This document shows positions 3,838 through 33,074 of a stretch of DNA of 33,075 bases, one piece after another (position 1 is the first letter of the stretch; every line of letters starts with the position of its first letter). Where the stretch lies: the IMG/VR virus record IMGVR_UViG_3300043442_000189; one strand, written 5' to 3'. Source of the DNA: a virus. The notes beneath the pieces are model-generated. The model saw only the letters and a list, made by a program, of their open reading frames with translations. It had not been told where the DNA came from and did not search any database. The translations under genes and the position numbers were made by a program.

Positions 3838-4333
3838 AAGTTTAGATGAGATGATTATTCTCAATGATTCTACGTATGACAGAGTATTGGATATGTTGTG
3901 TAGTCCTGATAAGGACAATGTTCAAGTTGCTGTTAGTATTATTGAAGCTGTAGATTTTCAAAAGAATGCTCCGTATATCTTATTGCTTGCAAAAGATGCA
4001 GAAGCAAAACTAAAAAGAGATAATAATCCTTTTAGAGCAGAGTTATTTGGTGAAGGAGATATAGAAACTACTCCAGGTTCATCTAGTTTTAATACTAATA
4101 TTAGAACTATGATACAAGCATGTACTAATCAAGCTGATAAGTTAAACTACAATGCTATGTACGAAGAACTTACCAGAATGAATACTGATGCTGTTGCTAT
4201 GAACTTCTTCTTAGGAAGATTTGCAGATGCATTAAAGGATCACCTTCTACAATGGGGTTTCACATTTGTAAAAACTATGGACTTAAAATTAATACCACAT
4301 GACAAAACAAGATTCGCTGGCGAAGGTCAGTAA
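3830..4333 (+). CDS. Hypothetical helical protein; paralogue A of a three-member family
   Basis: Residues 10-55 align without gaps to internal segments of ORFs 6689..7861 and 7827..8990. Confidence 0.8.
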   Translation: MTKSLDEMIILNDSTYDRVLDMLCSPDKDNVQVAVSIIEAVDFQKNAPYILLLAKDAEAKLKRDNNPFRAELFGEGDIETTPGSSSFNTNIRTMIQACTNQADKLNYNAMYEELTRMNTDAVAMNFFLGRFADALKDHLLQWGFTFVKTMDLKLIPHDKTRFAGEGQ

Positions 4334-5489
4334 AGAACTAATGCTTAAAGAACCATTCTATGGTTTGCTTATACTCAGCTTAAATAAGGTGTGGGACAAG
4401 AGAGTCCCCACCGCTGGTGTAAGTAAGAATGGAGTGAACTTTCAGCTTACTATTAATGAAGACTTTTGGAATTCTCTCAGTGATAATCATAAGAGAGGGT
4501 TACTTAAGCATGAGTTATTGCATATTGGTTTCTTCCACATTCAGTGTCAAGATGAATTTCAAAATAAGAAAGTAGCAAACATTGCTATGGATATTGAGAT
4601 TAATCAGTACATTGATCCGGATGATTTACCAGAAGGAGGATGTACTCTAGAGTCATTCTCGGAATATAATCTACCACCTAAAGCAGGTTGTCGAGAGTAT
4701 TACAAACTCTTGATGAAAGCTATGGAAGAAGAACAACAATCTGGTAAAGGTGGTAAGATATCTGACATGGCGAGTATGGGTGAAGGTGAGTCATATGGTG
4801 ACGGTACCATTAATCCTGATCACGATACATGGAAAGATTTTGAAGATTTGTCTGAAGCAGAAAAGAAATTGCTTGAATCACAGACAGCACACATTCTTAA
4901 AGAAATTGCAGAAGCTGTAGAGAAATCTAGGGGTACAATTCCCGGAGAGTTTCAAGGTATTATTGAAAGACTTAGACACGTAGAACCACCAAAGTTTGAC
5001 TGGCGTAGTTATGTCAGAAGATTTGCAGGTGGATCTAATGAGATCTTTACCAAGAAACTAAGACGTAAAGACAACAGAAGATTTGAAGAAAATCCTGGTC
5101 TTAAGATTAAAAACAAGAGACACTTGTTAGTTGCTATAGATACCAGCGGTTCTGTAAGTGATAAAGAAGTTAAGGAATTCCTTAATGAGATACATCACAT
5201 ACATAAAACTGGTAGTGAAGTAACTGTCTTACAGTGTGATACTACTATTAGAAGTATTGAGAAGTTTAAACCTAACCAAGACATTGTGTTACATGGTCGT
5301 GGAGGTACTGACTTTGATCCAGTTCTAGAGTATTACAATGAGAATACAAGAAAGTATACGTGCATGTTCTATCTAACAGATGGTGAATGTAGCACTAGTG
5401 TAAAACCAAGAGGTAAAATGTTATGGGTAATCTCTACCCGTGGTGAAATTAACGACGGTCTTCCAGGACCACAAATCAAGTTGAATTAA
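4299..5489 (+). CDS. DUF2201-type protein: N-terminal HExxH metallopeptidase-like domain plus C-terminal VWA domain
   Basis: LKHELLH and NIAMDIEIN; MIDAS-type AIDTSGS, GRGGTDF and YLTDG. Confidence 0.85.
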   Translation: MTKQDSLAKVSKELMLKEPFYGLLILSLNKVWDKRVPTAGVSKNGVNFQLTINEDFWNSLSDNHKRGLLKHELLHIGFFHIQCQDEFQNKKVANIAMDIEINQYIDPDDLPEGGCTLESFSEYNLPPKAGCREYYKLLMKAMEEEQQSGKGGKISDMASMGEGESYGDGTINPDHDTWKDFEDLSEAEKKLLESQTAHILKEIAEAVEKSRGTIPGEFQGIIERLRHVEPPKFDWRSYVRRFAGGSNEIFTKKLRRKDNRRFEENPGLKIKNKRHLLVAIDTSGSVSDKEVKEFLNEIHHIHKTGSEVTVLQCDTTIRSIEKFKPNQDIVLHGRGGTDFDPVLEYYNENTRKYTCMFYLTDGECSTSVKPRGKMLWVISTRGEINDGLPGPQIKLN

Positions 5490-5501
5490 AAAATTAAAGA
5501 A

Positions 5502-6689
5502 ATGGCTAAGCAAGTACAATTAAACACAGATGAGTTAAAGCAGTTTGTATCTCACGTTGTAAACAATAACAAGTATCTACAGGAAAACGGTAAGATTCCT
5601 GTAGCTGTAAATATTGAAGGTGAAGCAGGTATCGGTAAGACTACCACTATTCTGCAGTTCACAAAGGATAATAACATGGACTATGTAAAGTTATCTTTGA
5701 GTCAGCTCGAGGAGTTGGGTGACTTGGTAGGTTTTCCTATTAAGGAATTCCAAGTTACTAAGACTACTGATGATGGTCAGAAGGTTACTAAGTGGATTCC
5801 CGAGAATGTTATGCCTATGTATATCCAGCAGAAGTATGTACCTACTGGAGAAAAGCGTATGACTCACGCAGCACCAGAGTGGATTCAAGGTAAAGGAGAG
5901 AATGGTCTCTTGATTCTTGACGACTATACTCGTGCAGATGCTAGATTCATGCAAGCTACTATGGAGATCATTGATCGTCAAGAGTATGTATCATGGAAGT
6001 TACCAAAAGGATGGACTGTTATCCTAACTAGTAATCCTGATAATGGTGACTATCAAGTTACATCTCTTGATGAGGCACAGAAGACTCGCTTTATCACAAG
6101 CTATTTGAAGTTTGATCTTGAGTGTTGGGCACGTTGGGCAGAGGAGAATGAGATCGACACTCGTTGTATTAACTTCATGTTGTTGCACCCAGAGTTGACA
6201 GAGAAGCGTGCTAACGCGCGTAGCTTCACTACATTCTTTAACTCTATCTCTAGTTTGGAAAGCTTTGAAGAAAGTCTTCCTATTATCCAGATGATTGGTG
6301 AAGGTTCTGTAGGTGGTGAGTTTGCTACTATGTTTACTATGTTCATTAACAACAAGTTAGATAAGTTGGTAACTCCTAAAGATGTATTGACTAACAACAG
6401 TTGGGAATATATCAAAGGACAACTTAAGTCTTGTATTGGTGAAGGTAATAACTACCGTGCAGATATCGCTAGCTTGATGACTACTCGTCTTATTAACTAT
6501 GCTGTGCACTATTCTAATAACAACACAGTAACTCAACCAATGATTGACCGTATTACTAATTTGATTACAGAAGATATCTTCAGTAATGATCTTAAGTATT
6601 ACATGGTTAAGGGTATCCTTAATGGTAACAAGCAGAAGTTCACCAAGCTTATGCTTAATCCAGAAGTTATTAAAATGACTGTAAAGTAA
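5502..6689 (+). CDS. MoxR-like AAA+ ATPase
   Basis: Walker A GEAGIGKT, Walker B LILDDYTRAD, sensor ILTSNP, arginine finger LDEAQKTRF and ARSF; adjacent to a VWA protein. Confidence 0.85.
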   Translation: MAKQVQLNTDELKQFVSHVVNNNKYLQENGKIPVAVNIEGEAGIGKTTTILQFTKDNNMDYVKLSLSQLEELGDLVGFPIKEFQVTKTTDDGQKVTKWIPENVMPMYIQQKYVPTGEKRMTHAAPEWIQGKGENGLLILDDYTRADARFMQATMEIIDRQEYVSWKLPKGWTVILTSNPDNGDYQVTSLDEAQKTRFITSYLKFDLECWARWAEENEIDTRCINFMLLHPELTEKRANARSFTTFFNSISSLESFEESLPIIQMIGEGSVGGEFATMFTMFINNKLDKLVTPKDVLTNNSWEYIKGQLKSCIGEGNNYRADIASLMTTRLINYAVHYSNNNTVTQPMIDRITNLITEDIFSNDLKYYMVKGILNGNKQKFTKLMLNPEVIKMTVK

Positions 6690-17719: not shown

Positions 17720-20700
17720 TTATTTGAAACGACTTTGTGCACTTTCAAAGTTTTTCAATGCATTAACTGGATCTACAGCTTTTCCAGAAAGTCCTATAGA
17801 TTTAAGTATGTAGTTAAGAACCTTTGCGTCTTCTTGCTGTTGCCACTCAAATGGTCCCGCATCACGCTTGTAATAAGCTGAAGGATCGTTAGTTATCAAG
17901 TTTACAATAGCAGCAATACTCTTTGAGGTGTTCTCTACAGTATGTGTTAGTGCAATAGAATCTAAAGTAAACAACTTACCATAGTCATCAAGTCCTAATC
18001 CGGGTATTGGTACCATAGCTTCCTGCTCGTTTAGTGTACTCTTAAGTAAGAACAACGCATGGTTTTCCATAAATCCTACGGTGTTATATTCATACTCACT
18101 GTCTGCAGTAAAGATTCCGGGAAGTGGTCCTGACTTACGGCGTAGTTTTTCGTAGCGCTCTTCATCATCTGGATCATAATCAAACAATAATAACATCAAG
18201 TTAAGACCTCCGATAATCACTAACAATTCAACAGCAGTCTTCTTAAGTGATGCTTTCTCTTGTTTAGTAAGAACCTTTGTGTCTTTTCCTAAAGTCGTAA
18301 TTGCTCTTACCATAGTATTCAAAGACTGAGTATAGTAACCTATTCTCATCTGATTACCTTGAACATCCCATCTAGCTTGTGGGTTCAAGAAGTTTCCACG
18401 GTATCCAAAACGGTTCAAGAACATGTTAGCAAACCACTTCTTCAAGAATGTGATCATTCTCCATAGTAAGTATCTACCGCCCATAGGAGTATCAAATTGT
18501 GTAAAAGCTCCATTAAGATTTCTATTCATAGCTTGTACACGGTTCTGCATCATCTTGAACTTAGATCCTCCTGGTGCCCACTCTTGACTAATTCCTTCTT
18601 TTACAGTAAGTTGACCATCTTTAATCTCAAATGCTTCCATGTAAGGGATTTGTTTTGTCACACCGTTGATAGTTTGATCTACCATTTGGTGGTGCATTAC
18701 TCCTCCAAACAATTGCATTGTTGCGTTAAGCTGCGTCCATACACGGAAGTTAGTTAACCAGCTTCTGTCTTTTAATATGTCTCTTGTAAGTGTTCTAGTT
18801 GAACTAGTACCAAACTTATCCCCATAACCACGGACTTCAGGTCTAAACTTCATTTCAGGATCGAACATTTCATAAATCTGAACATTCAATCCTTTTGGAC
18901 CATACTTATAGATCTCAAAAGATATCTCTGCTGTAGCGTACTGTGCCCATATTGCACCTTTTGCTAAACTACTTGGTGATAAATACTGTCCTCCAGCACT
19001 CTCAATAATTGACTGGAATGTCTGACCAAACGAGTTCTTTAACGCTGATGTAATATCTAATGCAAAGAACGCTGTCGATGCAAGACCCATTGCAAAACTA
19101 CCGAACTTGTTTAGTCCCGCCATGTCTGCAGTAACACCTGCTTGTGTCTTACCCTCAAACTCTCTTTCTATAAGTGAGTTGATTGCTTGTGCTCTTACAG
19201 ATGTTCCTTTCTTTTTAGTAGCAAAGCGTAGTTGATTAAACGCAAGTTTATCACTCTTACTCGCTTTAGTCATATCTTTAAGAGCACCTTCTTTTCCGTT
19301 GACAACCTTTTGAATTGCACGTACTTGAGGATTGATCTCTACTAACTTCTTATGTCTCTCCGCACTCTGCATATAGCGCATTACACCAAGGAACATGTCT
19401 TCGGAAGTTTCTGTTAATTCTAAGTCTGCTTTACCTGCAATAGGAATACCGCTGATCTCAGAGTCAAACATGTCTAGAGTTACATAGTTTATGTCAGCTT
19501 CTGGATTATAACCTAGATCTAAATCATCTTTCGCTTTTGCAAACGTTGCTTTTGTATTACTTACAACTGTATCCCACTTGTCTTTGAGTGTGCCTTCTGT
19601 AAGAGTTTCGTAACCATCCTTTCTAAATCTAGGTGCAAATACACCAAGTCTTGAGTTCTTAGATAGTCCTTCTTGGTTCTCCAAATGGAACTGAAGCATC
19701 TTGTTAGCAAGGTTGAACTGTGCAGGATTAGTATTCTTTAATCTGTAATACTCATCATTTCTAAACTTGCTATCAGGTTTTGGTAACCATCTACCAACCT
19801 CATCTACAGTAGCTAATGTGAGATCACCTCGACGAAGTGCTTCCGCCATAGTAATCTTTTCTGTTCTGTATTCACTCTTTAAAGATCTTCTGTAATACTT
19901 CAAAGTAGGAATACCTTGTATAACATCAATTACATTTCCGTCTTTATCTGTGATTTCTGTACTCTCGTAGTACTCAGGATCATTTGGACGGTTGACGTTC
20001 CAAGCGCTTATACGTTTATGACTTTTGATTTTAGTTCCTCTTCTTCTACCTTTCTTAATAGTATATTCAGAAGTATAATGATTTTCTCTGAACCATTTAT
20101 CAAACTTAGGACTCTTTCTTAGAATATCGCTAATATTAGGATCAAGAATCTTATCAATGTTACTTGCATCAAACTCTCTAATACCTAATACGCTGAATAA
20201 TTCTGCAACATCTACATTGTCCTCTTCCTCCTCACCTGGTTTTAGTAATTCATTTACAGCATCTATATACTGACTGGTAGCTTCTTTACTTCTAAGAGCA
20301 TTAAGTTTTTTATAGAGAATATTTATTCGACCTATAGATACGTCATTTAATGCGTATTCATCAATTAGGCTTTGAAGATACTCGTATCTATCTCTAAGAT
20401 CGGGATTTTCTGCTACCCATTCTGAAAGATTATCTCGATTGAGTGATAACAAAGCAGATATGTAATCGTACTCTTCTTGCTCATCTGCAGATAATCCCAT
20501 CAAACCTGTGATGGTCTTTCTAGACTTTTCAATCTGTTTGTCTAGTTCTTTGATAGCTGCTCTTTTCTTTTCAGACATTAGCAAACCATCAGGTTGACCA
20601 TCATCATCTCTAAACGCACTCATCTGATCAGTAAGATCAGCATAGAGTTCATCTAGATCTAATTTCATTTTTAAGTTCTCTGGTATCTCAGGTTTCAAGG

Positions 20701-23700
20701 ATCTGATCTCTTCTAGAATCTCGTTTACCTTTTCCCAAAACTCTGGTTTGATTTTTACACGCGTGTTGTTTTTAATCCAGTCAGCACGCATCTTAATAAA
20801 TTCTCCCCCGGTAATACCATTATCTTTAAGTTGCTGCTCGTAAGAAGCAAGTGCTCTAGAGAACATGTTCTTTACAGGAACCCATTCATAGAACTCTTTA
20901 GTTTCTTCTCTATACTCACGTAGTCTAACAGCAATCTTGTAGTCATCTGAATTAGGATCTTTCTTAGTACCGTCGGCGTAACTTAAAGAGAACAACATAT
21001 TGTACTCTCTCCATAGAGAATCAAGTATTGCAACTCTATCTTTTTCTATGAGTTCATCCGGATCAGTGATACCAAGATCCAAACTCTTAATTTTTCTTAG
21101 TACAAGATCTCTTGCGTTATACGCTTTCTCACCAATCTCATCACGCACCAATCTTTTCTCAGCATTTCTTACAACTTCTTTTTTAGAATCGTAGAAATTC
21201 TCACTAAGAAACTTCTCTCTTTCTACTTTTAGTTTATCAAGTTCTGTACTATCTCCAGTTTCCTGTGCAGTGATTTCAGCTTTTCTGATTTCATCATTGA
21301 TTTTACCAATCTCGTATCTATAGTCTTTAAGGTGATTCTTAAATGCGTATCTGTCACGCTGTACGTATTCACCCTTCTCATTATAGATACCGTCTTTCTC
21401 TACATAGGTTACAGCATCTCGCAATGCTTTTAGGTTCTTGATGTCGATACCTGCAGCTTGTAGCAATGGTTCAAACTCAGTAGCAAACTTATTATGCTTC
21501 TGTTGACTGACTGTAAGTACATCAGAAATATTATTGTTAATGAACTGAGCAAGACCAAACACTACAGGATCTTGTATATTCATATAAGATTCCATCCATG
21601 CACTAAGCACGTTTGTATCTTTTCGCTGTCCGGTTAACCACTCTTTTAAAGCTTGTTTATCAAGAATGGTATCTTTAAATTCTCTTTTGTATCGCTCAAT
21701 CTTTTCAGGAGATGCTCCTTTAGAAACTAATTCGTCAATGATATCGTTATAATATCTCTCAACTTCTTTTGCTAGTGGATCTAGAACATCCGTTAAAAGT
21801 TCTGTAGCAGATCTAACACTGAACTTCTCGTCAATATTAATTGCTGTATTAACATAACCTTCTATACTAGTAATTAAATCTACAAACTCACCAGTGTCTA
21901 ATCCTTCTTCATTCAACATCTCTCTAGCGTTACTAATAGTATTCGCCCAATCTGTTGCTAACTGTCTGTAGTAAAAGAATTGTTTTGTAATCTCTGGTGT
22001 CTGGGGTTGGTTGCGGATTTCATTCATATGAATTACCATCAACCTTGCCATGTGTTTGATTTGATACAAAGTCTCGATATAAGCTTTTGCTTTATCGTGA
22101 TTGTACTGATACTTTTCTACTAGCTCAGAGAACTTATCGGTAATCAAACTTTCATAATCTCTAAGATTGTTTATGATAATCTTATAGGTAGGTTCATCAA
22201 ACTCACCCTTAAGAAGTTCCGCCATATCCTTAAGGTTCTTGTTAACCTCAAGACGTTCTTTATGGTTCATTGCAACACGATAGACATCGTTGATTGCTTT
22301 ACTCACAGCTTGTGCACCGGAGTCTGTTTCCATAATATTTGCTAACTCCTCAACAAGTCCATCTATATCTTTCTTAAATGCAACAATATCTGTTTGATTA
22401 ACAGACTCAGTTTGGAAATCTATTTTTGCAGCTAAGAATATTTCTGATAACTCATCAAGAGTTGTGGTGCTGTCTAATTTAGATACGTCATAAGTTTTAC
22501 CTAAGTACTTTCTAAGCAATTGTTTTAGATTGTACAAGAAGTTCTTAATCGCATTAAAGAAAGATGTGTCTTCTGGTTTCTTGTTTATCTTATCGTAAGC
22601 ATGCTTTGACAATGCTCTTACTACAACTTCCTCCTTGAATAAGTCACTAGACGGATCTAATGTATCTTCTAACAAAGACACCATAGATACCATCTTACGA
22701 CCTGTCTCAGTATTGATCAGATCATTATATAACTTATTAAACAACTCGGGATTCTCTCTCTGAATAGCACGCACAAAAGGATGTGCAAACTCATGCATTG
22801 CTGTATCTAAACTAAGATCTTCTCTTATCAAATATACTTTACCGCCTATAAAGAATCCGGATTCTTGTGTGTATGTTTTACCAGCTTGTTTTAATATTTC
22901 AAAAGCTTCTCCTCTTGATACAAACTCATAGGGTATACCAAGTCTGTCAGAGAAACTTCTAACCATAAAGTCAACAATAGCATTCGCTCTGTTTACACTA
23001 ACTCCTTGAGTATCAACTTCTATACCTGTAAGCATAGCATCAAACCCAGGAAACACAGCAAGATCTCTTAAGTGTTCATCTACTGTTTGAGACACTCTTA
23101 CATAAGACACCCCTTGCTCTGTAAACTTTTTAAATCCTTCTATATCTTGTTTAGTACCTAATTCATATAAGTTCTTTGATGTTGTTGCATATACTGTACC
23201 TGACTCTGCAGCTCTTCCTTTATCCACACCTTTTAACACAAAATCTTGTGGTTCATTTTCTAAAGATTCAGTATTCATTTCTCCTACATTCTTTATACTA
23301 GCTGTATTAATTAAGAATGTATTAATCATACCTTCACCAGATTGAGCAACAAAGCCTTTATCAAAAGCGTACTCTTTAGCATAAGATATTTTTTCTGTGA
23401 AAAACCCTCTTGTTTTAAATTGAGATCTTCCTTTTTCACTACCCCTATATACTATGGTATTTTGAGGAAAGATGATATCGAGATATGCTGAGTATAGTTG
23501 TTGAGCTTGTTGTTTTTGTTCTGGAGTTATTTGTTTAATCCTTCCTTCTGAAAGTTTATTACCTTTTTCAGATATAAATTGAAATTCATTATTTCCTATT
23601 CCGGGACCTTCAGCTTTAGCTTTTGTTAGTTCATCTTTAGTTACATCTACGTAATACAAAATAGGATTCTCTCTTTCTTTTAAGTAAAAACTCAGGTCTT

Positions 23701-24031
23701 CTATATTATCTGTAAACCAAATTCCGGTATCATCTTTTTCAGAACCTACTCTCCATAATCTTGTTTTACTTTGTTCAGGTTTACCAATTAAAATTTCATA
23801 TACAGCATTAGCTAATTCAGAATTAGAATCAAATAGTTCTGGTATTCCTGGTTTAATTGCTGCAGGTTTTACATCTAATAACTTACCTTCTTTTCGTAAA
23901 GTCTCTTTTATCTCTTCAACAGATCTAACTCTACCATATTCTAGATAGTCTTTATTAGCTATGAACTCTCCAAATACTTTTACTGATTCATTTAGTGCAT
24001 CCTTTTCAGGACCAAACGCGCATGCATTCAT
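17720..24031 (-). CDS. 2103-aa polyvalent virion cargo/ejection protein (ART-like segments, zincin HExxH domain, helical body, C-terminal hydrophobic segments)
   Basis: Directly follows the vRNAP gene; AMHEFAH at 22781-22795 with downstream EEVV; RLWR..GIWFT and IVYRG..GFFT segments; hydrophobic AVELLVIIGGLNLMLLLF. Confidence 0.8.
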   Translation of the reverse strand: MNACAFGPEKDALNESVKVFGEFIANKDYLEYGRVRSVEEIKETLRKEGKLLDVKPAAIKPGIPELFDSNSELANAVYEILIGKPEQSKTRLWRVGSEKDDTGIWFTDNIEDLSFYLKERENPILYYVDVTKDELTKAKAEGPGIGNNEFQFISEKGNKLSEGRIKQITPEQKQQAQQLYSAYLDIIFPQNTIVYRGSEKGRSQFKTRGFFTEKISYAKEYAFDKGFVAQSGEGMINTFLINTASIKNVGEMNTESLENEPQDFVLKGVDKGRAAESGTVYATTSKNLYELGTKQDIEGFKKFTEQGVSYVRVSQTVDEHLRDLAVFPGFDAMLTGIEVDTQGVSVNRANAIVDFMVRSFSDRLGIPYEFVSRGEAFEILKQAGKTYTQESGFFIGGKVYLIREDLSLDTAMHEFAHPFVRAIQRENPELFNKLYNDLINTETGRKMVSMVSLLEDTLDPSSDLFKEEVVVRALSKHAYDKINKKPEDTSFFNAIKNFLYNLKQLLRKYLGKTYDVSKLDSTTTLDELSEIFLAAKIDFQTESVNQTDIVAFKKDIDGLVEELANIMETDSGAQAVSKAINDVYRVAMNHKERLEVNKNLKDMAELLKGEFDEPTYKIIINNLRDYESLITDKFSELVEKYQYNHDKAKAYIETLYQIKHMARLMVIHMNEIRNQPQTPEITKQFFYYRQLATDWANTISNAREMLNEEGLDTGEFVDLITSIEGYVNTAINIDEKFSVRSATELLTDVLDPLAKEVERYYNDIIDELVSKGASPEKIERYKREFKDTILDKQALKEWLTGQRKDTNVLSAWMESYMNIQDPVVFGLAQFINNNISDVLTVSQQKHNKFATEFEPLLQAAGIDIKNLKALRDAVTYVEKDGIYNEKGEYVQRDRYAFKNHLKDYRYEIGKINDEIRKAEITAQETGDSTELDKLKVEREKFLSENFYDSKKEVVRNAEKRLVRDEIGEKAYNARDLVLRKIKSLDLGITDPDELIEKDRVAILDSLWREYNMLFSLSYADGTKKDPNSDDYKIAVRLREYREETKEFYEWVPVKNMFSRALASYEQQLKDNGITGGEFIKMRADWIKNNTRVKIKPEFWEKVNEILEEIRSLKPEIPENLKMKLDLDELYADLTDQMSAFRDDDGQPDGLLMSEKKRAAIKELDKQIEKSRKTITGLMGLSADEQEEYDYISALLSLNRDNLSEWVAENPDLRDRYEYLQSLIDEYALNDVSIGRINILYKKLNALRSKEATSQYIDAVNELLKPGEEEEDNVDVAELFSVLGIREFDASNIDKILDPNISDILRKSPKFDKWFRENHYTSEYTIKKGRRRGTKIKSHKRISAWNVNRPNDPEYYESTEITDKDGNVIDVIQGIPTLKYYRRSLKSEYRTEKITMAEALRRGDLTLATVDEVGRWLPKPDSKFRNDEYYRLKNTNPAQFNLANKMLQFHLENQEGLSKNSRLGVFAPRFRKDGYETLTEGTLKDKWDTVVSNTKATFAKAKDDLDLGYNPEADINYVTLDMFDSEISGIPIAGKADLELTETSEDMFLGVMRYMQSAERHKKLVEINPQVRAIQKVVNGKEGALKDMTKASKSDKLAFNQLRFATKKKGTSVRAQAINSLIEREFEGKTQAGVTADMAGLNKFGSFAMGLASTAFFALDITSALKNSFGQTFQSIIESAGGQYLSPSSLAKGAIWAQYATAEISFEIYKYGPKGLNVQIYEMFDPEMKFRPEVRGYGDKFGTSSTRTLTRDILKDRSWLTNFRVWTQLNATMQLFGGVMHHQMVDQTINGVTKQIPYMEAFEIKDGQLTVKEGISQEWAPGGSKFKMMQNRVQAMNRNLNGAFTQFDTPMGGRYLLWRMITFLKKWFANMFLNRFGYRGNFLNPQARWDVQGNQMRIGYYTQSLNTMVRAITTLGKDTKVLTKQEKASLKKTAVELLVIIGGLNLMLLLFDYDPDDEERYEKLRRKSGPLPGIFTADSEYEYNTVGFMENHALFLLKSTLNEQEAMVPIPGLGLDDYGKLFTLDSIALTHTVENTSKSIAAIVNLITNDPSAYYKRDAGPFEWQQQEDAKVLNYILKSIGLSGKAVDPVNALKNFESAQSRFK

Positions 24032-24035
24032 TCTA

Positions 24036-27000
24036 TTAACCTTTACAATTTTTAATATATTCTAATACTGTGTTGTCCGAAACTCGTTGTTTTACACCAG
24101 ATTCCATCAAGGTCTGCTGTATATAATCTAGTCCGGTTGTCGCTCCCTCTAAAAGTTCTGTTGAGAAACCTTTACTTATAAGATCGAACATTGGATTAAT
24201 ATAACCAAACTCTTTTAATAGTCTCTTAGACAAATGTACGTACAAATTCACGCTCTTCTTAAGTTGATTATTGGGAGCATACTTACCATTTTGTAGACTA
24301 AATCCTATAAGTTCTAGACCCATTCCTCGTGAAGGGAACACAATAGTTTTACCAGAATTCTTTAGTCTAGCTAGCTCATCTATCTGTTGATCAAGAACTT
24401 CTTTGTACTTCTCAAATTCTTCAGCACTAGGATTCTGACCACTAGGTAATTGTAATTGGATTCCGTAACTTCTACCTTTATCCAAACCTTTTCTAAACGC
24501 TTTTCTAGATCCGTTTGTAGGGGTCTTGTTCACTTTGGTACCGATAGGATACTGATCATCAAATACAAATACACTATCAGGATTCTCTTCAGAAACAGCA
24601 TCGAATTCATTGGTTGTGAACTTCATAACTTCTTCATTGTATACACGAACAGATTCTATTTCACCTGTCTCCATATTTACAAATGCTGCATTTTGCTCTT
24701 GAAGTATGTCAGTGTTAATGGTTTCTTTATTGAATGCACTTACTGCTGCATCTGCAACATAAGAAACATACATATTTCTGTCTCCGTTAAACTTAACGTC
24801 AAATCTTCTAGCAAATCTGTTCAGGATACTATCTGTCTGCTCCTTATTAGTATTGAATACTTTTATGTACTGGTCTAAGTTCTGAACAATAAACGGTGCA
24901 ATGTTATCCATTGTAAACACACTCATTACATAAAGTCCGGATCTAGCGTTGTTACCACCCTGTATAAATCCAATAGTTGGAAGCCTTTCAAAGAACGCAC
25001 TGATTACAGTATTGAGTTCTTTATCTTTTACTTTACTTACACCTGGGTCAGCAAGTTGTAGCATTTGATCTTTATAAGATGTACGTAACTGACCATCCTT
25101 TTCTTGAGTAATTAATCTTAGGAATGTTTTGTTACCAACAATCTTACGTGCAAGTAACTCAAGCACTGGATAGTTAGAAACTAATCCTGGATTTTCAATT
25201 AAGAAGTGTTCTAACTTTCTATGAGTACCTACAAGGTTTTGCTTATTATCACCTGCAAAAATACTAGTATCAATATACAAGTTATCCAAAGCTTTATTAC
25301 GTAAGAATTCTTCATATCTCATTGGCATATTTTTATTATCACCAATGATTTTCAAAAACTCTATGAACTCTTTAGACTGAACTGTCTCACTGTAGGGGTA
25401 CATTCCTCGTAAGGTCTCTCTTTCAAGAACAAACTTATAGTATAATTCAAATCCTCTATCACCGTAAGAAGAAAACGTGTTCTCTGGCAGTGGTGCTAGC
25501 ACAGCATTCTTAGGATTGTATGGTGATCTTGCTGATAGAACTTCAAGTTTCTTTGTAGACTTATATTCTAATCCACTAAATAATCTTAAGTCATACTGCT
25601 CCTTTAAAGATTTCTTATCTACGAGTAGTGTAGGTTTACCGTCAGCATCAACATTTAAAAATGCTCCAAATTTAAGTACTTCCTGATTCTCAATATCAAC
25701 TTCTACATCATTAGTTCTATATGTATCATCGTTGGTATTGTGTCTATACAGGAAGTTCTCAAAGATGTATTGATTCAAATCTGAAGTAAATGCGCTCACA
25801 TACTTTTCTTCCATATCCATATCCATATCAAGCTTATCTAAATGTTCTAATAAGAATTCATTCAGATATACAGATGACCTTAATGGAAGAACAGCAGACA
25901 AAGATTGACGGATAAGATCTTGCTTCATGAATGAACCTAAGATTGTAGACTTCAATAGTTTGTCAACCATCTCTTTAGGAACCTTAGCGGATATACCACG
26001 ACTACCTTGTTGTTTAGCTACAGCATCGAAGTAAGTTCTCGCTTTATCAGTATCAAAATTCAAACTTCTCTTTACTTCTGAGTTAGCTTTACTCATCAAT
26101 TGTATTTCTACAAAGTGCTCAAAGATCAAATCATTAATATCAATCTTACCTTCCAAGTTAGCATATAAATCCTCTACAGGAATACTAAAATCACTAGGTA
26201 TCTCACCACGCTTCTTTTGAATAGCAGCAACAATTAGCTCTACAGATGGTTTACGTTTTCCAGTTCTTGCAAGAATGTCAGGTGATACCATATCTAACAA
26301 AGCATTATACTTTGCAAAGCTTGGTTTAATATATTCACCTCCAGTTAAACCAGCATACGGACTTCCATATTGTCTTACCTTTTCTAGATACTCTCTAATC
26401 TTAGGTTGGGATAAAAACAACACAATCTGTCTAATCGGTACCCCTGCTAGAATCATTACCTCAAACTCTGGTTCAAATTCTTTAATAGCATTAATGTCAT
26501 AAACCCAGTCGTCTTTTGCAACGTCAAGGTATCCATTCATCAACTCTGATATTACGTCTGCAGTGTAGCGTTTTTTATCTGCACTCATCTGGTGAGACAA
26601 AGAAATGCTATCTCCGATTTTATTATGATCTAAGAAAAGTCTTTGATAAACTTTACCGAGTTTAGTATCGTACTCATTTGCTAAGTACATACCTACAGAT
26701 CTATATAAGTTAGAGAAGGTATTACCTGTAGCGATCATACCGATACCATCTTTACCAGCAGATAATGAAATCGCTTTAGAGATGTTGTAACCGTTCTCCA
26801 TAATACGAGTTGGAGAAAACTTACGAGAACTATGTCTACTTGTTTTGAAAGACTTACGGTTGTATTTACCAAACTCATTTTTTATAGATGGTGTTCCGTC
26901 TTCTTCTTCTCCTGTAAAGATTGTTGTATCGTTAGGTCGAGTCAGGTTGATATAGTTATCAGGTCTGCTTACAATACTAACCATGTTTTGCAACAATAAA

Positions 27001-30000
27001 TTAGTTTCAGCATTAGTACTATACGACTGTATCTGTCTATTTATATTTCTAATCTCTTCAAGATTATCAGCAATCTCTTTATCACGAGCTTCATAAAGTT
27101 CTTTTATTTCTTTTCGTGCTGCAAATTCTGCATCAAGTTTGCTTTGTATAGATTCAATCTTCTCAATTATAGCATCTAATTCAGCTTGTTTCTTTTCAAT
27201 ATATTTCTTACTATCCTTGATACTCTTACCTGCAGCAAGTCTCTCTTCTTGATCAGCTTTTGCTTTTCTAATTTTCTTGTAGATGACTGATCTCTCTTCT
27301 ACTAGTGGTTCCTTTTCTGCAATTAATGCGTCGATATCCTCACTAGCAACTATTTTAGAAAGTTGTTCATCGTATTTTCTATCAATAGCATCATACTTCT
27401 CCCTAAGAGTTTCTTTTTCATTCTCAAGTATAGCTTCTGACTTCTTTGTCTTAACTGACTTGGTAAGCTCTACCTTCTTTTCATTATAACTTATACTAGG
27501 TACAAGCGTAACAAGCTTGTCGATATCAAAGTCACCACCTGATTTAGCTACTATTTCTAATGGTAAGATCATTATGTTACCCGCATCTTCTGGTAAGAAC
27601 TCATATACTTCCATAAAGTCCATAGAGTTAGTACCCTGTGTCGGAATACGAACACCGAATAGAGTAATCATTTTTCTATTATCTCCAGTGTTTAACCACT
27701 TGTCATTCTTAATCATTTCGTTTAAGCGATCAAGTGTTCCTATCTTTTTACCATCATTATGATCTACATTCAATAACTTCTTAAAGTCACCATGTAAAGC
27801 AATCTTGATCTTCATTCCTGAGATAGGACTCTTTCCGTTCCATTTATAGAATGGTAAACCATCAGTACCATACTTTTTAAGATCTGCTTCTGTGGGTTTA
27901 GAAAACTTCTCAAATCCTACACCGGATCCTTGAATATATTGCTCACCTTTACTCATCTGGTCAATAATTCTCTTATTAACCAATGCGGTAATCAATGATT
28001 CAATCTTAGCAGGATCTGTAGAAATATCTAAAGGAAATAATAATTTACCGTTAGCATCTATTTTAATGAAGTCAATTGACTGCTCGTCTAGATCTTGTGC
28101 TGTAAGACTCTCTTTTACATATTCAACAAGACGCTTATGATTAATTTTACCATTGTGGAAACCTAACTCTTTCTTAAGTTGGTTCTCTGCAATAGTTGTA
28201 ATCTTATTGATATGATTTACATATGTCTTTTCTAGTTCGTAGTAAACAGACTCTTTCTCTTTTTGTTTTTCAGATAAGTCTGCCCATTGTTTTATTCTTT
28301 CAGACTCTGTAAGTCTTGGTCTGAAATCAGTTGGTACACCAAAGTCTCTAAGTCCTGATGTAACTAGCTTTCTTAACTGTGTAGGGAACTTTACATTCTT
28401 CTTAAACTTATCTTTAGTAACAAGCTGTTCTTTTAAGTAATCCAAGAAGATTGTATTCTCAACAAACTTGTAATCTGGTTCAGTAAATGCTGGATCAAAT
28501 TGATCATTCTTATAGAACGGAATCAAATCACCATTAGTACCTATACTAGCAATCTTAGAACCAGAATGCATTACACCGTAAGCAAAACCTTGAGATACCA
28601 AATGATTATGTAACTTCTCAAGTCTCTTACCTTTAATTACATTAGGTATAAGCGGCATTACCGAATACTTGTGGAAAGCATTAGGTGCAAAGTTATCTGT
28701 TAACAGTGGACCAGAGTACTGTAATTTCTTTACGGGGAAGAACTGTAGTGTCTCTGCAAGATCTACATTCTCACCATTTATAATTCTATTGTATAGATCT
28801 TCTTTTTCTGGACTCCAGTTATCAAGTCTGATCTCCAATGCTCTATATGCATCAAATGTCATCCATGCTTGAGCATCTGCTACTTTCATATTCTTGTAAG
28901 CATCGAATGCTTCTTTAGGAATAGGTACAGCAGCAGTTTCATTGTAGTCTTCTAACACACTAATCATTTCATCATAGTACACAGAGTCTGTAAATACATC
29001 TTTGAATACTGCTGTTTTTAGTATAGAACCTTGATACTCTAATGGATTAGATGGTGCTTGAAGACCTGATTGTTGGAACCAAGGTGACGTATGGTAACGA
29101 CCTCCTCTATGTACAAACATATTATCCATAAATACATCTGCAACAGGAATTCTACCTGTAGCAAAGAATCCAGGAATACGTTTCATATGTTCTTCCTTAT
29201 CATGGTTGTTCATAGCAGGGTCACCGTATACAAGAATGTTCATCTCAAACTTGTGGATGAAGCTATTATATACCATAGACTTAACCGCTGTATCAAAGAT
29301 TGTGGACGCTGCTTTACCTTTTAAGTTAGGTAACACGTTAGTAGTCATTGATGCATATACACCGGGTCTTTGTAATACAGGAAACGCGTTTAGTATATCC
29401 TTAGTCTTTGCAATCTCTTCTTCAAAATAGTTATTTAACTGCTCAAGAATTTGTTCTCTTACAGCAAAGTTGTTAGCTAAGAATTGTTTAAAAGAATCCA
29501 AGTCTGTAATAGACTCTTCATTGATTAACATGTTAGCTGTTTCTTCTAGTAAGATGTCGTCAAATACTGTGAAGGTACTTCCTGTATCTTTAAATGTCAC
29601 AGGGTTTCCTTTCTTATCATACCAAAGAATAATATCTTCGGGATTAGTTCCAGTACCGCTGAAGCTTCTAACTTTTTTAATTCTTTCAAGTTCAGAACCT
29701 ACATAGTCAATAATAATATTATTCGCTATGCTCCTACCGTTAGCATTTTCAAACTCTTTAGGATGTACGTAGAATGATGGGTTACCATTATTTGTAAGTG
29801 CTACGATAAAAGCTTGTGTCTTATCAGCGTGTTTATACGCCTCCGCAAATCCTTGCAGGTTATATGTGAAGAAGTCACGCAAATACGCCGTCTGGAAATC
29901 TGATGCAGATGATTTCAATCCTGATAACAAGATTACTGTTTCTACATTATCTTTAATTTGCTTGTCAAGAACTTGTGTTCCTAACTGAGATCTTATTTCA

Positions 30001-33000
30001 AGTTGATAAGGTACACCATTCTTTAATTGGCGCTTACCTAATGTCTCTCCGAACATTCTTTTGAAAATCACTGATGACTTTACAAGAGCATTTCTTTCAG
30101 GATTGTAGTGAGACATATTAGGTTCTGCAATCATTCTATCAAATGCTGCTTGTGTTCCATCTAAACTATCCGTAGAGTCGTTAATTCTATTTATAAGATT
30201 ACCTGCTGTACTAGGGTTAGACATTTCAGATTGTGAGTCGCCGCTAGCATTCTTAATCATGTAATCGTTTACGGTACCAGAATACTTAGATTGTACTTGC
30301 AATAAGTTATTCCAAGGAGTACCTTGATCATAAAACAAACTTGCTTGACCAGATGATTTAAGTCCGGTGATTACTCTATTGTTTTGTTTACCACTTGTAA
30401 CGATGTTGTAGATGTTAGTGATAATATTTCTATCTCTAAGTAATCTTCTAATCTTTACATTCTCAGCAATATCAATACCCAAGTCTCTTAAAAACTCTAC
30501 AGGTTTTTGCAATGCCATTACAGAAGTAGGATACTTTCTAAGTACTCCTTCGAGACTTAATGTGTAAATACCATCTGAGTTTTTAACCAAGAATTGACTT
30601 CTTGTTTTATTTACTTTAAAAGCATCTTCTAGATTTCTACCTGTTAACTTATCAGCACCATCTGACTCACCTACTCTTACTTCTACAGCACTATTGTTTA
30701 CATAACTAATAGTAACCTGATTACCTTCTAGTTTATCAAAACGGAAACTGTGGAAGAAACTATTCCATAGTGATTGATTACTAATATCCGGTGTATTCAA
30801 AGGACCTAGTTTCTGTAGGAGTTGTTGAACAATTAGATATCTGCTGTCAGGTTTACCATTATCAAGAAGCATCTTAGAAGCAAGATCCATATTCTCAAGC
30901 ATCTTAAGACGTGTATATGCATTCTCTGTAGAGGTTGCGATAGCACTGTATGCTTTTCTAAATGGTACTACTTTCTTGAAACCCAAACTGTTATATGCAA
31001 ACTTATCACCGTCTTTTTCAAATAACCCACTCAAAAGAAACATTACAGCGTCGTCCATTCTTTCAATGGTTCCGAACTCAATACCAGCACCCGCCATCAA
31101 TCCTTCTCTATCTGATGCACCTTCTTCAGTGCTAACAGCATCTGTTTGGTTACCGATATTACTTTCTCTATCTAATGCTTTAGATTGCATTGTCATGTCA
31201 AACAATCCATAGCGTTTATTATAATAGTCGATCAAACCGCCAGTAAAAGTTTCAGTGTTACCAAAGTTCATATATGCATACTGTAATAGCTGCATATTCT
31301 TTTCCAACTGTTCTTTTAAGAAACTCTCTGGAGTATTCTCGTATTCAGACTTTACAGCTTTAAGTCTATTAAGTATTGTTTCTTTTGCATCTTCTAATAC
31401 AGCTTTCTTATATGCATTGTTATTGAATAACGCAGATGTTGCTTTTGCTGTACCTCTACTATCTACAATATCAGATATGATTGAGTTAAGTGAGTCTGAT
31501 AACAAAATAGAATCACTAATATTCAAATCTTCAAATCCTTCTGTTGTAGCAATAATACCACTATTCAAAACATTGAATTCCATATTAGCAGCATCCATTG
31601 TATAGTCGGATAAATCACCAACATACAATTTCTCAAATACTTCTGCTACATTACTTTCTGATATAGGTGTAAGGGTACTTTCTCTAGATCCAAATCCAAA
31701 TAATGCTTTTAATGCATCCCATATCTTTCTAAAGATACTCTTTACTTTAGTAGGTTCAGTTTTAGTAAACTTACCACCATTCAATGCAAACTCCCGGAAC
31801 TTCTCAGCAAGATGTTCTTCAGCGTAAAGTCTATGATTCTTATTAGTAAAATCTAAATCAGAAGCACTCATTGACTTCCAACTATTAGTAGAATCATCAT
31901 AGTACTTAATTCTTTCTCCAGAGTTCTTTACAGCATTATATAAATCTAATTTCTCTTTACCTGTTAAGAACCACTGTGTAAATCCGTGCCACGCTTCGTG
32001 ATATAAATCTGAGTAGTCTGATCCTTGAAATAAACTAATACCCGCTCGTGTAAAACGTGCTCTAACGTCACCATTGCTGTTTGCAATTCTAAACATAACA
32101 TGATAAGGAATCACATCTGACATGTTCTTCTCTACAATGTTACCACTAGCATCTTTGAACTTAATCTTAAGATTCTTATACCAAGATTCGGCTTGAACAA
32201 TTTGTGCGGGTGTAGCTTCAATCTCACCTTGACCGCGTCTCTTATAAGTACCGAAGTCAAAATCTTTAGATTTATTTACAGTAATTTCAGAGTTAGTAGG
32301 TAGACTAGATGGAATCTCATCTGCTTTAGTTTCTCTTCCTTTTTCTAATTCAAATGCTTCCCAGTTGAAGTTATTAATCAAATAGTCTAATGCATTAGAA
32401 TGAGCAGGTTCGTTCAACTCTACATAGTAAAGAATATCTTTACCTTTAAGTTTACCTGAAGTAAGTTCTTGTCTGATCCAGTTAGCACGTTCTTTTAACT
32501 TTTCAATTTCTTGAGCAGTCTTTCCGGACTTACTGTAGTCAAAGTTATCATTGGTAACCCAATCTAAATATGTCTTTACAGCATCAACTGTACTAGCAAC
32601 TCTTATTAAATCCGGATTCTTTTTAAGAACACTTTCTGTTGAAGAAAACGGATTACCAAAGTGTTGATTAGTATTATGAATTCTTGTAGCTATTACTCCA
32701 GTAATTGCACCACTCTTATTTGTTTCATAAGCTTCTGTTTTCTTTGATAGTGTTGCCCAAGTCTTTTTCTTTACATTACCTGTAATAGTTTTGTTAGGAT
32801 CTAACTTAGAATACATTCTGTCAACAGGATTATCTCCTATGACTTCCTTAACTTTCTTTGCAGTGCTTAGTGTACGAAGACCGTCGATACCTAATGAGAA
32901 CTTTACATATCCATTTACTTGACGAATCTCTCCATTAAATAATTCTATACTTACTAATGCATTCTCTTTTGCCCAATCAAGATATGGTCTTGTAGATGTA

Positions 33001-33074
33001 GTAATATCCAAAGATCCTTCAGTGTTTGGGGTAAGTGTAAACTCAACAAAGTTACCAGTTGCTCTTTTGTTATT
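24036..33074 (-). CDS. Virion-packaged single-chain RNA polymerase (crAss/phi14:2 gp66-type), 5'-partial, at least 3012 aa
   Basis: Catalytic GGDFDIDK (DFDID at 27519-27533), VRIPTQG, DAQAW, TQLRK and NGYLDVAKD; N-terminal HEAWH. The frame stays open from 33011 to the window edge, so the TTG start in the track is unlikely to be the real start. Confidence 0.92.
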   Translation of the reverse strand, partial: NNKRATGNFVEFTLTPNTEGSLDITTSTRPYLDWAKENALVSIELFNGEIRQVNGYVKFSLGIDGLRTLSTAKKVKEVIGDNPVDRMYSKLDPNKTITGNVKKKTWATLSKKTEAYETNKSGAITGVIATRIHNTNQHFGNPFSSTESVLKKNPDLIRVASTVDAVKTYLDWVTNDNFDYSKSGKTAQEIEKLKERANWIRQELTSGKLKGKDILYYVELNEPAHSNALDYLINNFNWEAFELEKGRETKADEIPSSLPTNSEITVNKSKDFDFGTYKRRGQGEIEATPAQIVQAESWYKNLKIKFKDASGNIVEKNMSDVIPYHVMFRIANSNGDVRARFTRAGISLFQGSDYSDLYHEAWHGFTQWFLTGKEKLDLYNAVKNSGERIKYYDDSTNSWKSMSASDLDFTNKNHRLYAEEHLAEKFREFALNGGKFTKTEPTKVKSIFRKIWDALKALFGFGSRESTLTPISESNVAEVFEKLYVGDLSDYTMDAANMEFNVLNSGIIATTEGFEDLNISDSILLSDSLNSIISDIVDSRGTAKATSALFNNNAYKKAVLEDAKETILNRLKAVKSEYENTPESFLKEQLEKNMQLLQYAYMNFGNTETFTGGLIDYYNKRYGLFDMTMQSKALDRESNIGNQTDAVSTEEGASDREGLMAGAGIEFGTIERMDDAVMFLLSGLFEKDGDKFAYNSLGFKKVVPFRKAYSAIATSTENAYTRLKMLENMDLASKMLLDNGKPDSRYLIVQQLLQKLGPLNTPDISNQSLWNSFFHSFRFDKLEGNQVTISYVNNSAVEVRVGESDGADKLTGRNLEDAFKVNKTRSQFLVKNSDGIYTLSLEGVLRKYPTSVMALQKPVEFLRDLGIDIAENVKIRRLLRDRNIITNIYNIVTSGKQNNRVITGLKSSGQASLFYDQGTPWNNLLQVQSKYSGTVNDYMIKNASGDSQSEMSNPSTAGNLINRINDSTDSLDGTQAAFDRMIAEPNMSHYNPERNALVKSSVIFKRMFGETLGKRQLKNGVPYQLEIRSQLGTQVLDKQIKDNVETVILLSGLKSSASDFQTAYLRDFFTYNLQGFAEAYKHADKTQAFIVALTNNGNPSFYVHPKEFENANGRSIANNIIIDYVGSELERIKKVRSFSGTGTNPEDIILWYDKKGNPVTFKDTGSTFTVFDDILLEETANMLINEESITDLDSFKQFLANNFAVREQILEQLNNYFEEEIAKTKDILNAFPVLQRPGVYASMTTNVLPNLKGKAASTIFDTAVKSMVYNSFIHKFEMNILVYGDPAMNNHDKEEHMKRIPGFFATGRIPVADVFMDNMFVHRGGRYHTSPWFQQSGLQAPSNPLEYQGSILKTAVFKDVFTDSVYYDEMISVLEDYNETAAVPIPKEAFDAYKNMKVADAQAWMTFDAYRALEIRLDNWSPEKEDLYNRIINGENVDLAETLQFFPVKKLQYSGPLLTDNFAPNAFHKYSVMPLIPNVIKGKRLEKLHNHLVSQGFAYGVMHSGSKIASIGTNGDLIPFYKNDQFDPAFTEPDYKFVENTIFLDYLKEQLVTKDKFKKNVKFPTQLRKLVTSGLRDFGVPTDFRPRLTESERIKQWADLSEKQKEKESVYYELEKTYVNHINKITTIAENQLKKELGFHNGKINHKRLVEYVKESLTAQDLDEQSIDFIKIDANGKLLFPLDISTDPAKIESLITALVNKRIIDQMSKGEQYIQGSGVGFEKFSKPTEADLKKYGTDGLPFYKWNGKSPISGMKIKIALHGDFKKLLNVDHNDGKKIGTLDRLNEMIKNDKWLNTGDNRKMITLFGVRIPTQGTNSMDFMEVYEFLPEDAGNIMILPLEIVAKSGGDFDIDKLVTLVPSISYNEKKVELTKSVKTKKSEAILENEKETLREKYDAIDRKYDEQLSKIVASEDIDALIAEKEPLVEERSVIYKKIRKAKADQEERLAAGKSIKDSKKYIEKKQAELDAIIEKIESIQSKLDAEFAARKEIKELYEARDKEIADNLEEIRNINRQIQSYSTNAETNLLLQNMVSIVSRPDNYINLTRPNDTTIFTGEEEDGTPSIKNEFGKYNRKSFKTSRHSSRKFSPTRIMENGYNISKAISLSAGKDGIGMIATGNTFSNLYRSVGMYLANEYDTKLGKVYQRLFLDHNKIGDSISLSHQMSADKKRYTADVISELMNGYLDVAKDDWVYDINAIKEFEPEFEVMILAGVPIRQIVLFLSQPKIREYLEKVRQYGSPYAGLTGGEYIKPSFAKYNALLDMVSPDILARTGKRKPSVELIVAAIQKKRGEIPSDFSIPVEDLYANLEGKIDINDLIFEHFVEIQLMSKANSEVKRSLNFDTDKARTYFDAVAKQQGSRGISAKVPKEMVDKLLKSTILGSFMKQDLIRQSLSAVLPLRSSVYLNEFLLEHLDKLDMDMDMEEKYVSAFTSDLNQYIFENFLYRHNTNDDTYRTNDVEVDIENQEVLKFGAFLNVDADGKPTLLVDKKSLKEQYDLRLFSGLEYKSTKKLEVLSARSPYNPKNAVLAPLPENTFSSYGDRGFELYYKFVLERETLRGMYPYSETVQSKEFIEFLKIIGDNKNMPMRYEEFLRNKALDNLYIDTSIFAGDNKQNLVGTHRKLEHFLIENPGLVSNYPVLELLARKIVGNKTFLRLITQEKDGQLRTSYKDQMLQLADPGVSKVKDKELNTVISAFFERLPTIGFIQGGNNARSGLYVMSVFTMDNIAPFIVQNLDQYIKVFNTNKEQTDSILNRFARRFDVKFNGDRNMYVSYVADAAVSAFNKETINTDILQEQNAAFVNMETGEIESVRVYNEEVMKFTTNEFDAVSEENPDSVFVFDDQYPIGTKVNKTPTNGSRKAFRKGLDKGRSYGIQLQLPSGQNPSAEEFEKYKEVLDQQIDELARLKNSGKTIVFPSRGMGLELIGFSLQNGKYAPNNQLKKSVNLYVHLSKRLLKEFGYINPMFDLISKGFSTELLEGATTGLDYIQQTLMESGVKQRVSDNTVLEYIKNCKG

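Follow-up and report, generated by a model that had tools for sequence, protein, structure and literature searches.

The two cysteines at the adjoining ends of two giant virion proteins are one joint of an end-to-end pattern conserved among crassvirus cargo proteins, in which, judging from sequence and from an analogous bond in a cyanophage, a disulfide likely, with a probability of about 65%, locks the C-terminal tail helix of one protein onto the N-terminal head of the next.

Cysteine Content and Identity of the Two Giant Proteins

In the window (the whole stretch of 33,075 nucleotides that was analysed), the minus strand carries the gene for a crAss-type RNA polymerase (vRNAP; 24036..33074), a relative of phi14:2 gp66, whose reading frame is open at the window end and misses about 500 N-terminal residues. 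Across a 4-nt gap (24032..24035, minus strand) lies the gene for a downstream cargo protein of 2103 aa (17720..24031, minus strand), which belongs to the same family as phi14:2 gp65 and the crAss001-type gp49 and would be the last link of the chain. The 3012 visible residues of the vRNAP contain a single cysteine, residue 3010 (codon TGT, 24045..24047, minus strand), and the downstream protein contains a single one at residue 4 (codon TGC, 24020..24022, minus strand), which bears out the preliminary description of one cysteine per giant protein at the adjoining ends of neighbouring genes. The 18 plus-strand genes counted hold 58 cysteines in 4881 aa (1.19%). About 61 cysteines would be expected in the 5115 aa of both giant proteins and 2 were observed (probability of two or fewer, 8e-24), and chance would place both no more than 10 aa from the facing ends with a probability of about 8e-6. 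Translation tables 15 and 4 altered neither count from the start codons used, and junction contigs from four other runs (4 of the 24 listed) had no listed change at either cysteine codon.

The vRNAP matched PDB 6VR4 (phmmer E 2e-23), its only PDB match, and phi14:2 g066 (tblastn E 9e-17, 92% of the core query), and its catalytic motif DFDID (visible residues 1848-1852; 27519..27533, minus strand) fits DFDxD and is invariant in alignment A1. The downstream protein (P0002) matched 76 of the 77 set-B proteins, phi14:2 gp65 matched 39 (best E 6e-42), and phi14:2 gp67 matched 3 set-A (upstream) proteins. With a downstream gene homologous to gp65 and an upstream gene, taken from the relatives L001 and L002, homologous to gp67, the locus belongs to the cargo set gp67-gp66-gp65. 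The named top matches were classed as Crassvirales; the terminase, major capsid protein and portal genes lie outside the window.

Neither giant protein was named by Pfam or PHROGs. The downstream protein carries an HExxH motif (HEFAH; 22781..22795, minus strand), seen in the sequence with no Pfam match, which we take to be zincin-like; gp65 orthologues have been described with a zincin-like domain. In the N-terminal region of the vRNAP, residues 101-250 lay near DUF4326 (PF14216) clusters in the ESM Atlas (0.87-0.91) and had no Pfam hmmscan match, so that the Cys-free DUF4326-like segment (32400..32660, minus strand) is a lead only. The DUF4326 family normally carries cysteines in that segment, and the searches found no stand-alone homologues of it.

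The part of the vRNAP beyond the window was judged from L002, whose vRNAP matches that of the window at 98.3%, beginning at L002 residue 503. The L002 protein is complete at 3514 aa and has cysteines at positions 3 and 3512 only, so the many cysteines that would have spoken against the proposed chaining are not found in this relative's N-terminus. For the upstream gene, likewise beyond the window, the sequences of L001 and L002 were used; Cys3 of the L002 vRNAP faces a terminal cysteine of the upstream protein, and the chain would therefore comprise three links.

Conservation of the Paired Terminal Cysteines in Crassvirales

Mapping of cysteine positions in a survey of 85 loci in 53 clusters, from which L058 and L071 were excluded for lack of the motif regex, showed that the pair is co-conserved: a C-terminal cysteine was present in 82 of 83 vRNAPs and an N-terminal cysteine in 79 of 82 next ORFs. 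At the other junction, 65 of 69 vRNAPs had an N-terminal cysteine and 64 of 68 upstream proteins a C-terminal one, the four misses being the same four loci in both cases. Interior cysteines in the surveyed cargo proteins amounted to 21 in 316,958 residues (0.007%). In 11 named crassviruses, paired cysteines were found at 14/14 junctions and a cysteine at 0/22 outer ends. L012 (cr108_1), with its RNA polymerase in two ORFs, was excluded from these 11 records; there the cysteine closing the second RNA polymerase ORF is Cys791 of 792, and the one opening the ORF that follows is Cys5. The purge is not strict, because gut lineages tolerate interior cysteines, up to 0.41% in cr130_1. The position of the terminal cysteine varies from residue 3 to 6 in heads and from 1 to 10 residues from the end in tails, with no fixed spacing, and cysteine is the sole residue that every head and tail type shares.

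Predicted Docking Ends and Their Co-Variation

The C-terminal tail of the vRNAP (24039..24098, minus strand; alignment A2) ends in its cysteine, the single nearly invariant column among 18 aligned tails, and is likely a docking helix. The N-terminal head of the downstream protein (23867..24031, minus strand; alignment A3) consists of an arm bearing the cysteine and a predicted three-helix unit (helices 8-20, 22-32 and 38-48; mean pLDDT 79) and is likely the docking site. Directly behind it lies a Cys-free cassette of about 250 aa (23132..23884, minus strand; borders approximate) that is absent from L001.

In phylogeny-corrected partial Mantel tests on 36 clusters, partner ends gave correlations of 0.34 and 0.29 (p 0.001), and non-partner ends gave 0.06 and 0.06 (p 0.19, 0.11). 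This co-variation supports contact between the presumed partner ends, not the chemistry or timing of a bond. Co-folding of a 40-aa tail with a 55-aa head (A2, A3) scored 0.26 and 0.04, where the mark was 0.32, was run without controls and counts neither way, and the head model, compared by fold with 48,161 chains, had no informative match (best Z 3.7).

It is unlikely that tail and head dock as proposed while their cysteines coordinate a metal (such as zinc held by four thiols of two neighbouring chains) or serve as small buried residues, with no disulfide. Co-variation is compatible with any docking, assembly takes place in the reducing cytoplasm, and each protein is packed in several copies, about 6 at most according to a volume estimate. 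Each end, however, offers a single cysteine, with a histidine nearby in only 3/95 tails and 7/95 heads (2 of the 95 rows being false junctions), cysteine is the one residue that all types share, and the A4 pair forms a disulfide (PMC12002296).

Fusions, Inserted ORFs and Rearranged Genes

Where homology shows that neighbouring cargo genes are fused, the terminal pair is missing at the fused boundary; this was found for the upstream protein and RNA polymerase in L084 and for the RNA polymerase and downstream protein in L071, L008 and L014. The upstream fusion was confirmed, by the upstream-protein profile, for L084 only; it escaped both blastp and the profile in L070, L088 and three Suoliviridae records, where the call reflects gene position and size. 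No internal vestigial copy of the head was detected among 341 ORFs with the head profile, which matches N-termini only. In addition, small extra ORFs within the chain carry cysteines at both ends, and the pair is kept across opposite-strand genes (crAss001 gp47/gp50) and across an intervening ORF of 180-200 aa (L069, L070).

These observations bear on three alternatives. The cysteines could join like with like in a ring, anchor each cargo protein to the portal or to tail proteins, or join the two ends of the vRNAP; the cargo is oligomeric, tail proteins are Cys-rich and cross-linked, and the vRNAP has a cysteine at both ends. We regard all of these as quite improbable, as they leave unexplained the lack of outer-end cysteines and the joint absence of both boundary cysteines at fusions; self-closure is moreover impossible for fused forms with one terminal cysteine, and the vRNAP tail showed no residual co-variation with its own head (0.06, p 0.19). 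In fused lineages a peptide bond can stand in for the joint, which would suit another covalent chemistry (thioester or transpeptidation) ligating the proteins into a polyprotein, but this is very improbable given the variable spacing of the cysteines from the ends noted above. Splicing-type ligation requires a cysteine at a free N-terminus. Scarcely credible is a by-product of a DNA or RNA junction signal (translational coupling), or mere chance: the cysteine codons do lie 23 nt apart in the window, but both codons occur at the ends (TGT 264, TGC 50), the gap is not conserved (-11 to +43 nt in relatives), the pair outlasts inversion and intervening ORFs, and chance placement is already remote at the window junction alone, as calculated above.

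Proposed Mechanism and Significance

The tail-to-head linkage put forward in the preliminary description thus gains from co-conservation, from the missing cysteines at fusions and outer ends, from co-variation and from the A4 geometry, while its other option, a shared metal site, is weakened by the scarcity of histidines; the bond itself is a prediction for crassviruses, and the cryo-EM study of crAss001 reports disulfides in gp57 and tail proteins only, with gp47, gp49 and gp50 unresolved (PMC10172136). In the proposed mechanism, tail and head would associate without a covalent bond while the particle assembles in the reducing cytoplasm, and the disulfide would be oxidised in the released virion, as in A4 particles. 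The set would then leave the capsid as a single thread, its order fixed and its members in a 1:1 ratio, with partly unfolded proteins traversing the tail N-terminus first and each drawing the next, and the purge of cysteines elsewhere would avoid wrong cross-links. The bond is likely reduced in the host cytoplasm, yet this is probably not what the link is for, because several lineages have a fusion, and with it a peptide bond, in its place; the suggestion that the link serves to release the RNA polymerase there is therefore unsupported.

A rather unlikely variant retains the same pairing but places disulfide formation not in the virion but solely in the host periplasm, or gives the bond a role in building a trans-envelope complex. 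The periplasm catalyses disulfides, the reason given for cysteine loss from N4-like ejection proteins (PMC11445570), and, gut hosts being anaerobes, oxidation after lysis may be slow. The analogous A4 bond is, however, already present in the mature virion (PMC12002296), crAss001 virions contain other disulfides (PMC10172136), and a bond made after exit cannot order exit.

On a broader reading, to which we give odds slightly better than even, crassvirus cargo is a post-translational polyprotein: giant proteins from separate genes would have matched docking ends that act as an address code and are locked by single disulfides, the joint would be interchangeable with fusion, and new modules would be added once they gain a head and a tail tipped with cysteine. 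If true, the RNA polymerase and its companions would be drawn through the tail in a set order and ratio, in a group that takes in the commonest gut phages. On the order in which crassviruses eject their several megadaltons of cargo, the crAss001 atlas considers that it likely arises from packing and mutual interactions and, in the sections available, names no such link (PMC10172136), and a 2026 N4 paper holds that crassvirus ejection proteins still need solving. The rule names the pairs gp67 C1797-gp66 C3 and gp66 C2179-gp65 C3 in phi14:2, and gp47 C2339-gp50 C5 and gp50 C2404-gp49 C5 in crAss001; it predicts the chain order despite gene rearrangement and marks small unannotated ORFs as cargo.

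Comparison with Known Systems

The homologous cargo sets phi14:2 gp67-gp66-gp65 and crAss001 gp47-gp50-gp49 show the same cysteine pattern. Crassvirus cargo proteins are virion-located, sometimes fused, and thought to be ejected partly unfolded (10.1101/2020.03.07.982082; PMC10172136); the packaging of the homologues comes from mass spectrometry and ejection is a model, and the window proteins are likely packed and injected as well. The text of the gp66 preprint (10.1101/2020.03.07.982082) contains neither 'cys' nor 'disulfide'. No description of terminal-cysteine chaining in crassviruses was found in the literature covered. Within that scope the earlier remark that such chaining is not described stands for crassviruses; the A4 disulfide and the N4-like purge were already known.

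In the Schitoviridae (N4 gp50-52, DEV gp71-73), a giant virion RNA polymerase and its neighbours are purged of cysteine, which was explained by passage through the periplasm (PMC11445570). There, cysteine is reported to be all but absent, none is conserved at the termini, and the polymerase is T7-like, whereas the polymerase here is of the two-barrel type and the terminal cysteines are conserved; with these and its sole PDB match, 6VR4, the window vRNAP does not fit the Cys-free operon of that family.

The closest likeness is to A4 (Anabaena phage A-4L), a cyanopodophage of the Saffermanviridae with the pre-ejectosome pair gp27-gp26, in which cryo-EM revealed a disulfide between gp27 Cys1715 and gp26 Cys5, with the C-terminal helix of gp27 in a cleft of gp26; its authors suggest a chain reaction upon ejection (PMC12002296). 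These are the sole cysteines of A4 gp27 (1715 of 1717) and gp26 (5 of 1114), so that in both systems sole cysteines stand where the C-terminus of one ejection protein faces the N-terminus of the next, the bond being seen in particles in A4 and predicted from sequences here. Neither A4 protein matched the 59 upstream or 77 downstream crAss proteins by blastp at E 1e-5; remote homology is possible, and because blastp similarity is lacking the precedent is an analogy. A4 has one junction, no RNA polymerase and belongs to another virus family, whereas each crassvirus has two to three junctions, gained and lost along with the splitting and fusing of genes.

Cysteine positions in the giant proteins

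The 3012-aa frame of the virion RNA polymerase (vRNAP; 24036-33074, minus strand) is open at the window end, and the next gene, encoding 2103 aa (17720-24031, minus strand), lies four bases further on. The vRNAP matches phi14:2 gp66 (PDB 6VR4, E 2e-23), carries the DFDID motif and is identified from its sequence as a crAss-type virion RNA polymerase. Its N-terminal region (~31980-31995) contains an HExxH motif (HEAWH), the second in the window after that of the downstream protein. The downstream protein and phi14:2 gp65 match one common set of downstream proteins, indicating that the two group together. Mass spectrometry places homologues in the virion, according to the available part of the crAss001 atlas (PMC10172136) and to record notes, from which packaging of the cargo proteins in the phage of the window is predicted.

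The preliminary description of one Cys per giant protein, at the adjoining ends, was borne out, with the sole Cys of the visible vRNAP at residue 3010 and that of the downstream protein at residue 4. From the 18 plus-strand genes of the window (58 Cys in 4881 aa), about 61 Cys would be expected in the 5115 aa of these two proteins (P 8e-24), and by chance both remaining Cys would fall within 10 residues of the facing ends with a probability of about 8e-6. Contigs of four other sequencing runs span the junction with strain differences, none of which is listed at the Cys codons. Many Cys might have been hidden in the unseen vRNAP N-terminus, and a near-identical relative (L002, 98.3% identity) that shows these ~500 residues has Cys at 3 and 3512 only in its full vRNAP, while its upstream protein (1525 residues visible) has its sole Cys third from the end. 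These positions make the Cys pair of the window, at the sequence level, one joint of a three-protein pattern, namely upstream tail/vRNAP head and vRNAP tail/downstream head.

Elsewhere in the window, metallopeptidase-vWA (DUF2201_N, DUF2201) and AAA+ ATPase genes adjoin in the replication block (4299-6689), and the primase (1731-2705) has a weak CHC2 zinc-finger profile match (E 6e-5) with one Cys only in the matched stretch.

Conservation of the terminal cysteines

Of 489 confirmed relatives, the best 80 (29-63% identity over their top-scoring segment) were taken together with the window and six further loci; two loci without the motif pattern were left out, giving 85 loci in 53 clusters, and a terminal Cys was counted within 12 residues of the end. 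The vRNAP C-terminal Cys was found in 82/83 (50/51 clusters) and the N-terminal Cys of the next ORF in 79/82, the misses being L006 (disrupted reading frame), L070 (another ORF in between, with Cys3 in the giant gene that follows it) and L085 (start assigned too far upstream). The vRNAP N-terminal Cys was found in 65/69 and the upstream-ORF C-terminal Cys in 64/68; both were missing in L068, where the RNAP is split over two ORFs, the first with Cys3, and in L070, L084 and L088, where the upstream giant gene does not occur as a gene of its own. An upstream-ORF N-terminal Cys occurred once in 14, in the split-RNAP locus L068, and a next-ORF C-terminal Cys in 12/49, all 12 being extra ORFs that are also Cys-headed and have a further Cys-headed gene behind them. 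Interior Cys amounted to 21 in 316,958 residues.

In 11 named records of Steigviridae, Intestiviridae and Suoliviridae, with chain order assigned by homology and position, junctions were paired in 14/14 and outer ends carried Cys in 0/22, the head Cys being residue 3 in two records only when counted from a later Met. No further Cys is present in 5398 residues of phi14:2, and the Cys purge is relaxed in gut lineages, up to 0.41% (cr130_1), with the terminal pair still kept. Taken over the sequences examined, the terminal-Cys pattern is real and order-wide. Away from the junctions, the 7875 cargo residues of cr130_1 (L011 6748-30377) include 32 Cys, a level that greatly exceeds that of environmental relatives.

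Fusions, insertions and inversions

Fusions shown by homology, of upstream protein and RNAP (L084) or of RNAP and downstream protein (L071, L008, L014), keep no terminal pair at the fused boundary. In L070, in L088 and in three records of Suoliviridae, neither blastp nor profile searches detected an upstream-RNAP fusion, and it is position and size that point to one. Several loci (L080 14334-14846, L081, L083, L085, L086, L087; also L027, L028, L029, L048, L069, L082) have extra ORFs of ~170-655 aa, with Cys at both ends only, ahead of the last cargo gene and after the vRNAP; these are likely overlooked cargo links. One cluster has six loci in which a ~550-nt gap contains a 170-aa ORF whose sole Cys are residue 4 and the third-last residue. 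The cargo array is also broken by a 180-200-aa ORF (L069 15940-16533; L070 15504-16052), presumably resembling a GIY-YIG homing endonuclease, and the flanking giant genes retain their terminal Cys. A nucleic-acid signal as the cause is ruled out, since crAss001 gp47 and gp50 retain Cys on opposite strands, both Cys codons occur at junctions and spacing varies from -11 to +43 nt.

Partner specificity

Tail-tail similarity follows the similarity of the partner heads. After removal of RNAP-core similarity, by a crude correction with a single core distance, values for partners were 0.34 and 0.29 (p 0.001, 36 clusters; the 2/95 false rows of the junction list lie outside these clusters), against 0.06 and 0.06 for non-partner ends of the same genomes (p 0.19, 0.11). 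Like-with-like Cys links have lower odds. The head in the window aligns with 17 others, is modelled as a Cys arm and three helices, and its profile matches N-termini only. A metal site formed by the two Cys is likewise a less probable reading; His is seldom near either Cys. Directly behind the head lies an insert of ~250 aa (~23132-23884), missing in L001; DNA at its start (23800-23860) has matches to numerous other contigs in each of the four runs, the ends being loose on either side, and looks like a widely reused cassette-border motif.

Proposed mechanism and comparison with known systems

Most likely, the tail helix would dock on the head of the next protein during assembly, the two facing thiols would oxidise in the released particle, and the cargo would pass through the phage tail as a single, partly unfolded thread that is pulled along; Cys would have been lost elsewhere so that wrong cross-links are avoided. 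Formation of the same bond later, in the periplasm, is given lower odds. Release of the RNAP by reduction, as first proposed, is not needed because fusions take the place of the joint; fused forms may undergo protease cutting, as suggested in the available text of the gp66 preprint (10.1101/2020.03.07.982082). In the accessible portions of published crassvirus structures and mass spectra, no terminal disulfide was found; those of the crAss001 atlas (PMC10172136) leave the cargo proteins unresolved and list disulfides only for gp57 and tail parts.

At L007 8839-10101, L099 6988-9516 and L010 25321-28497, the only Cys of the C1-type cargo proteins are two closely spaced internal ones (phi14:2 gp69 369/378; crAss001 gp45 390/398), as in A4 gp28 (1036/1039), with none in the C2-type proteins there.

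The words 'cys' and 'disulfide' are absent from the gp66 preprint text, as are 'cysteine' and 'disulfide' from a 2026 N4 paper and the polyvalent-protein paper, and no description of a multi-link, fusion-interchangeable terminal-Cys chain around the crAss RNA polymerase was found in the literature as covered in part, with gp66 represented by its preprint rather than its journal version. The strongest outside support for a disulfide joint comes from phage A4, where, in the available text on its cryo-EM structure (PMC12002296), the gp27 C-terminal helix sits in a gp26 cleft fixed by Cys1715-Cys5, the sole Cys of gp27 and gp26, respectively. Since homology between A4 and crAss proteins was not detected, A4 is treated as a system that works like the crAss cargo rather than a member of its family. 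Cys loss in ejected proteins, from N4-like phages (PMC11445570, available portion), and one terminal disulfide, from A4, are already known, and what appears new here is the multi-link, fusion-interchangeable terminal-Cys pattern around the crAss RNA polymerase.
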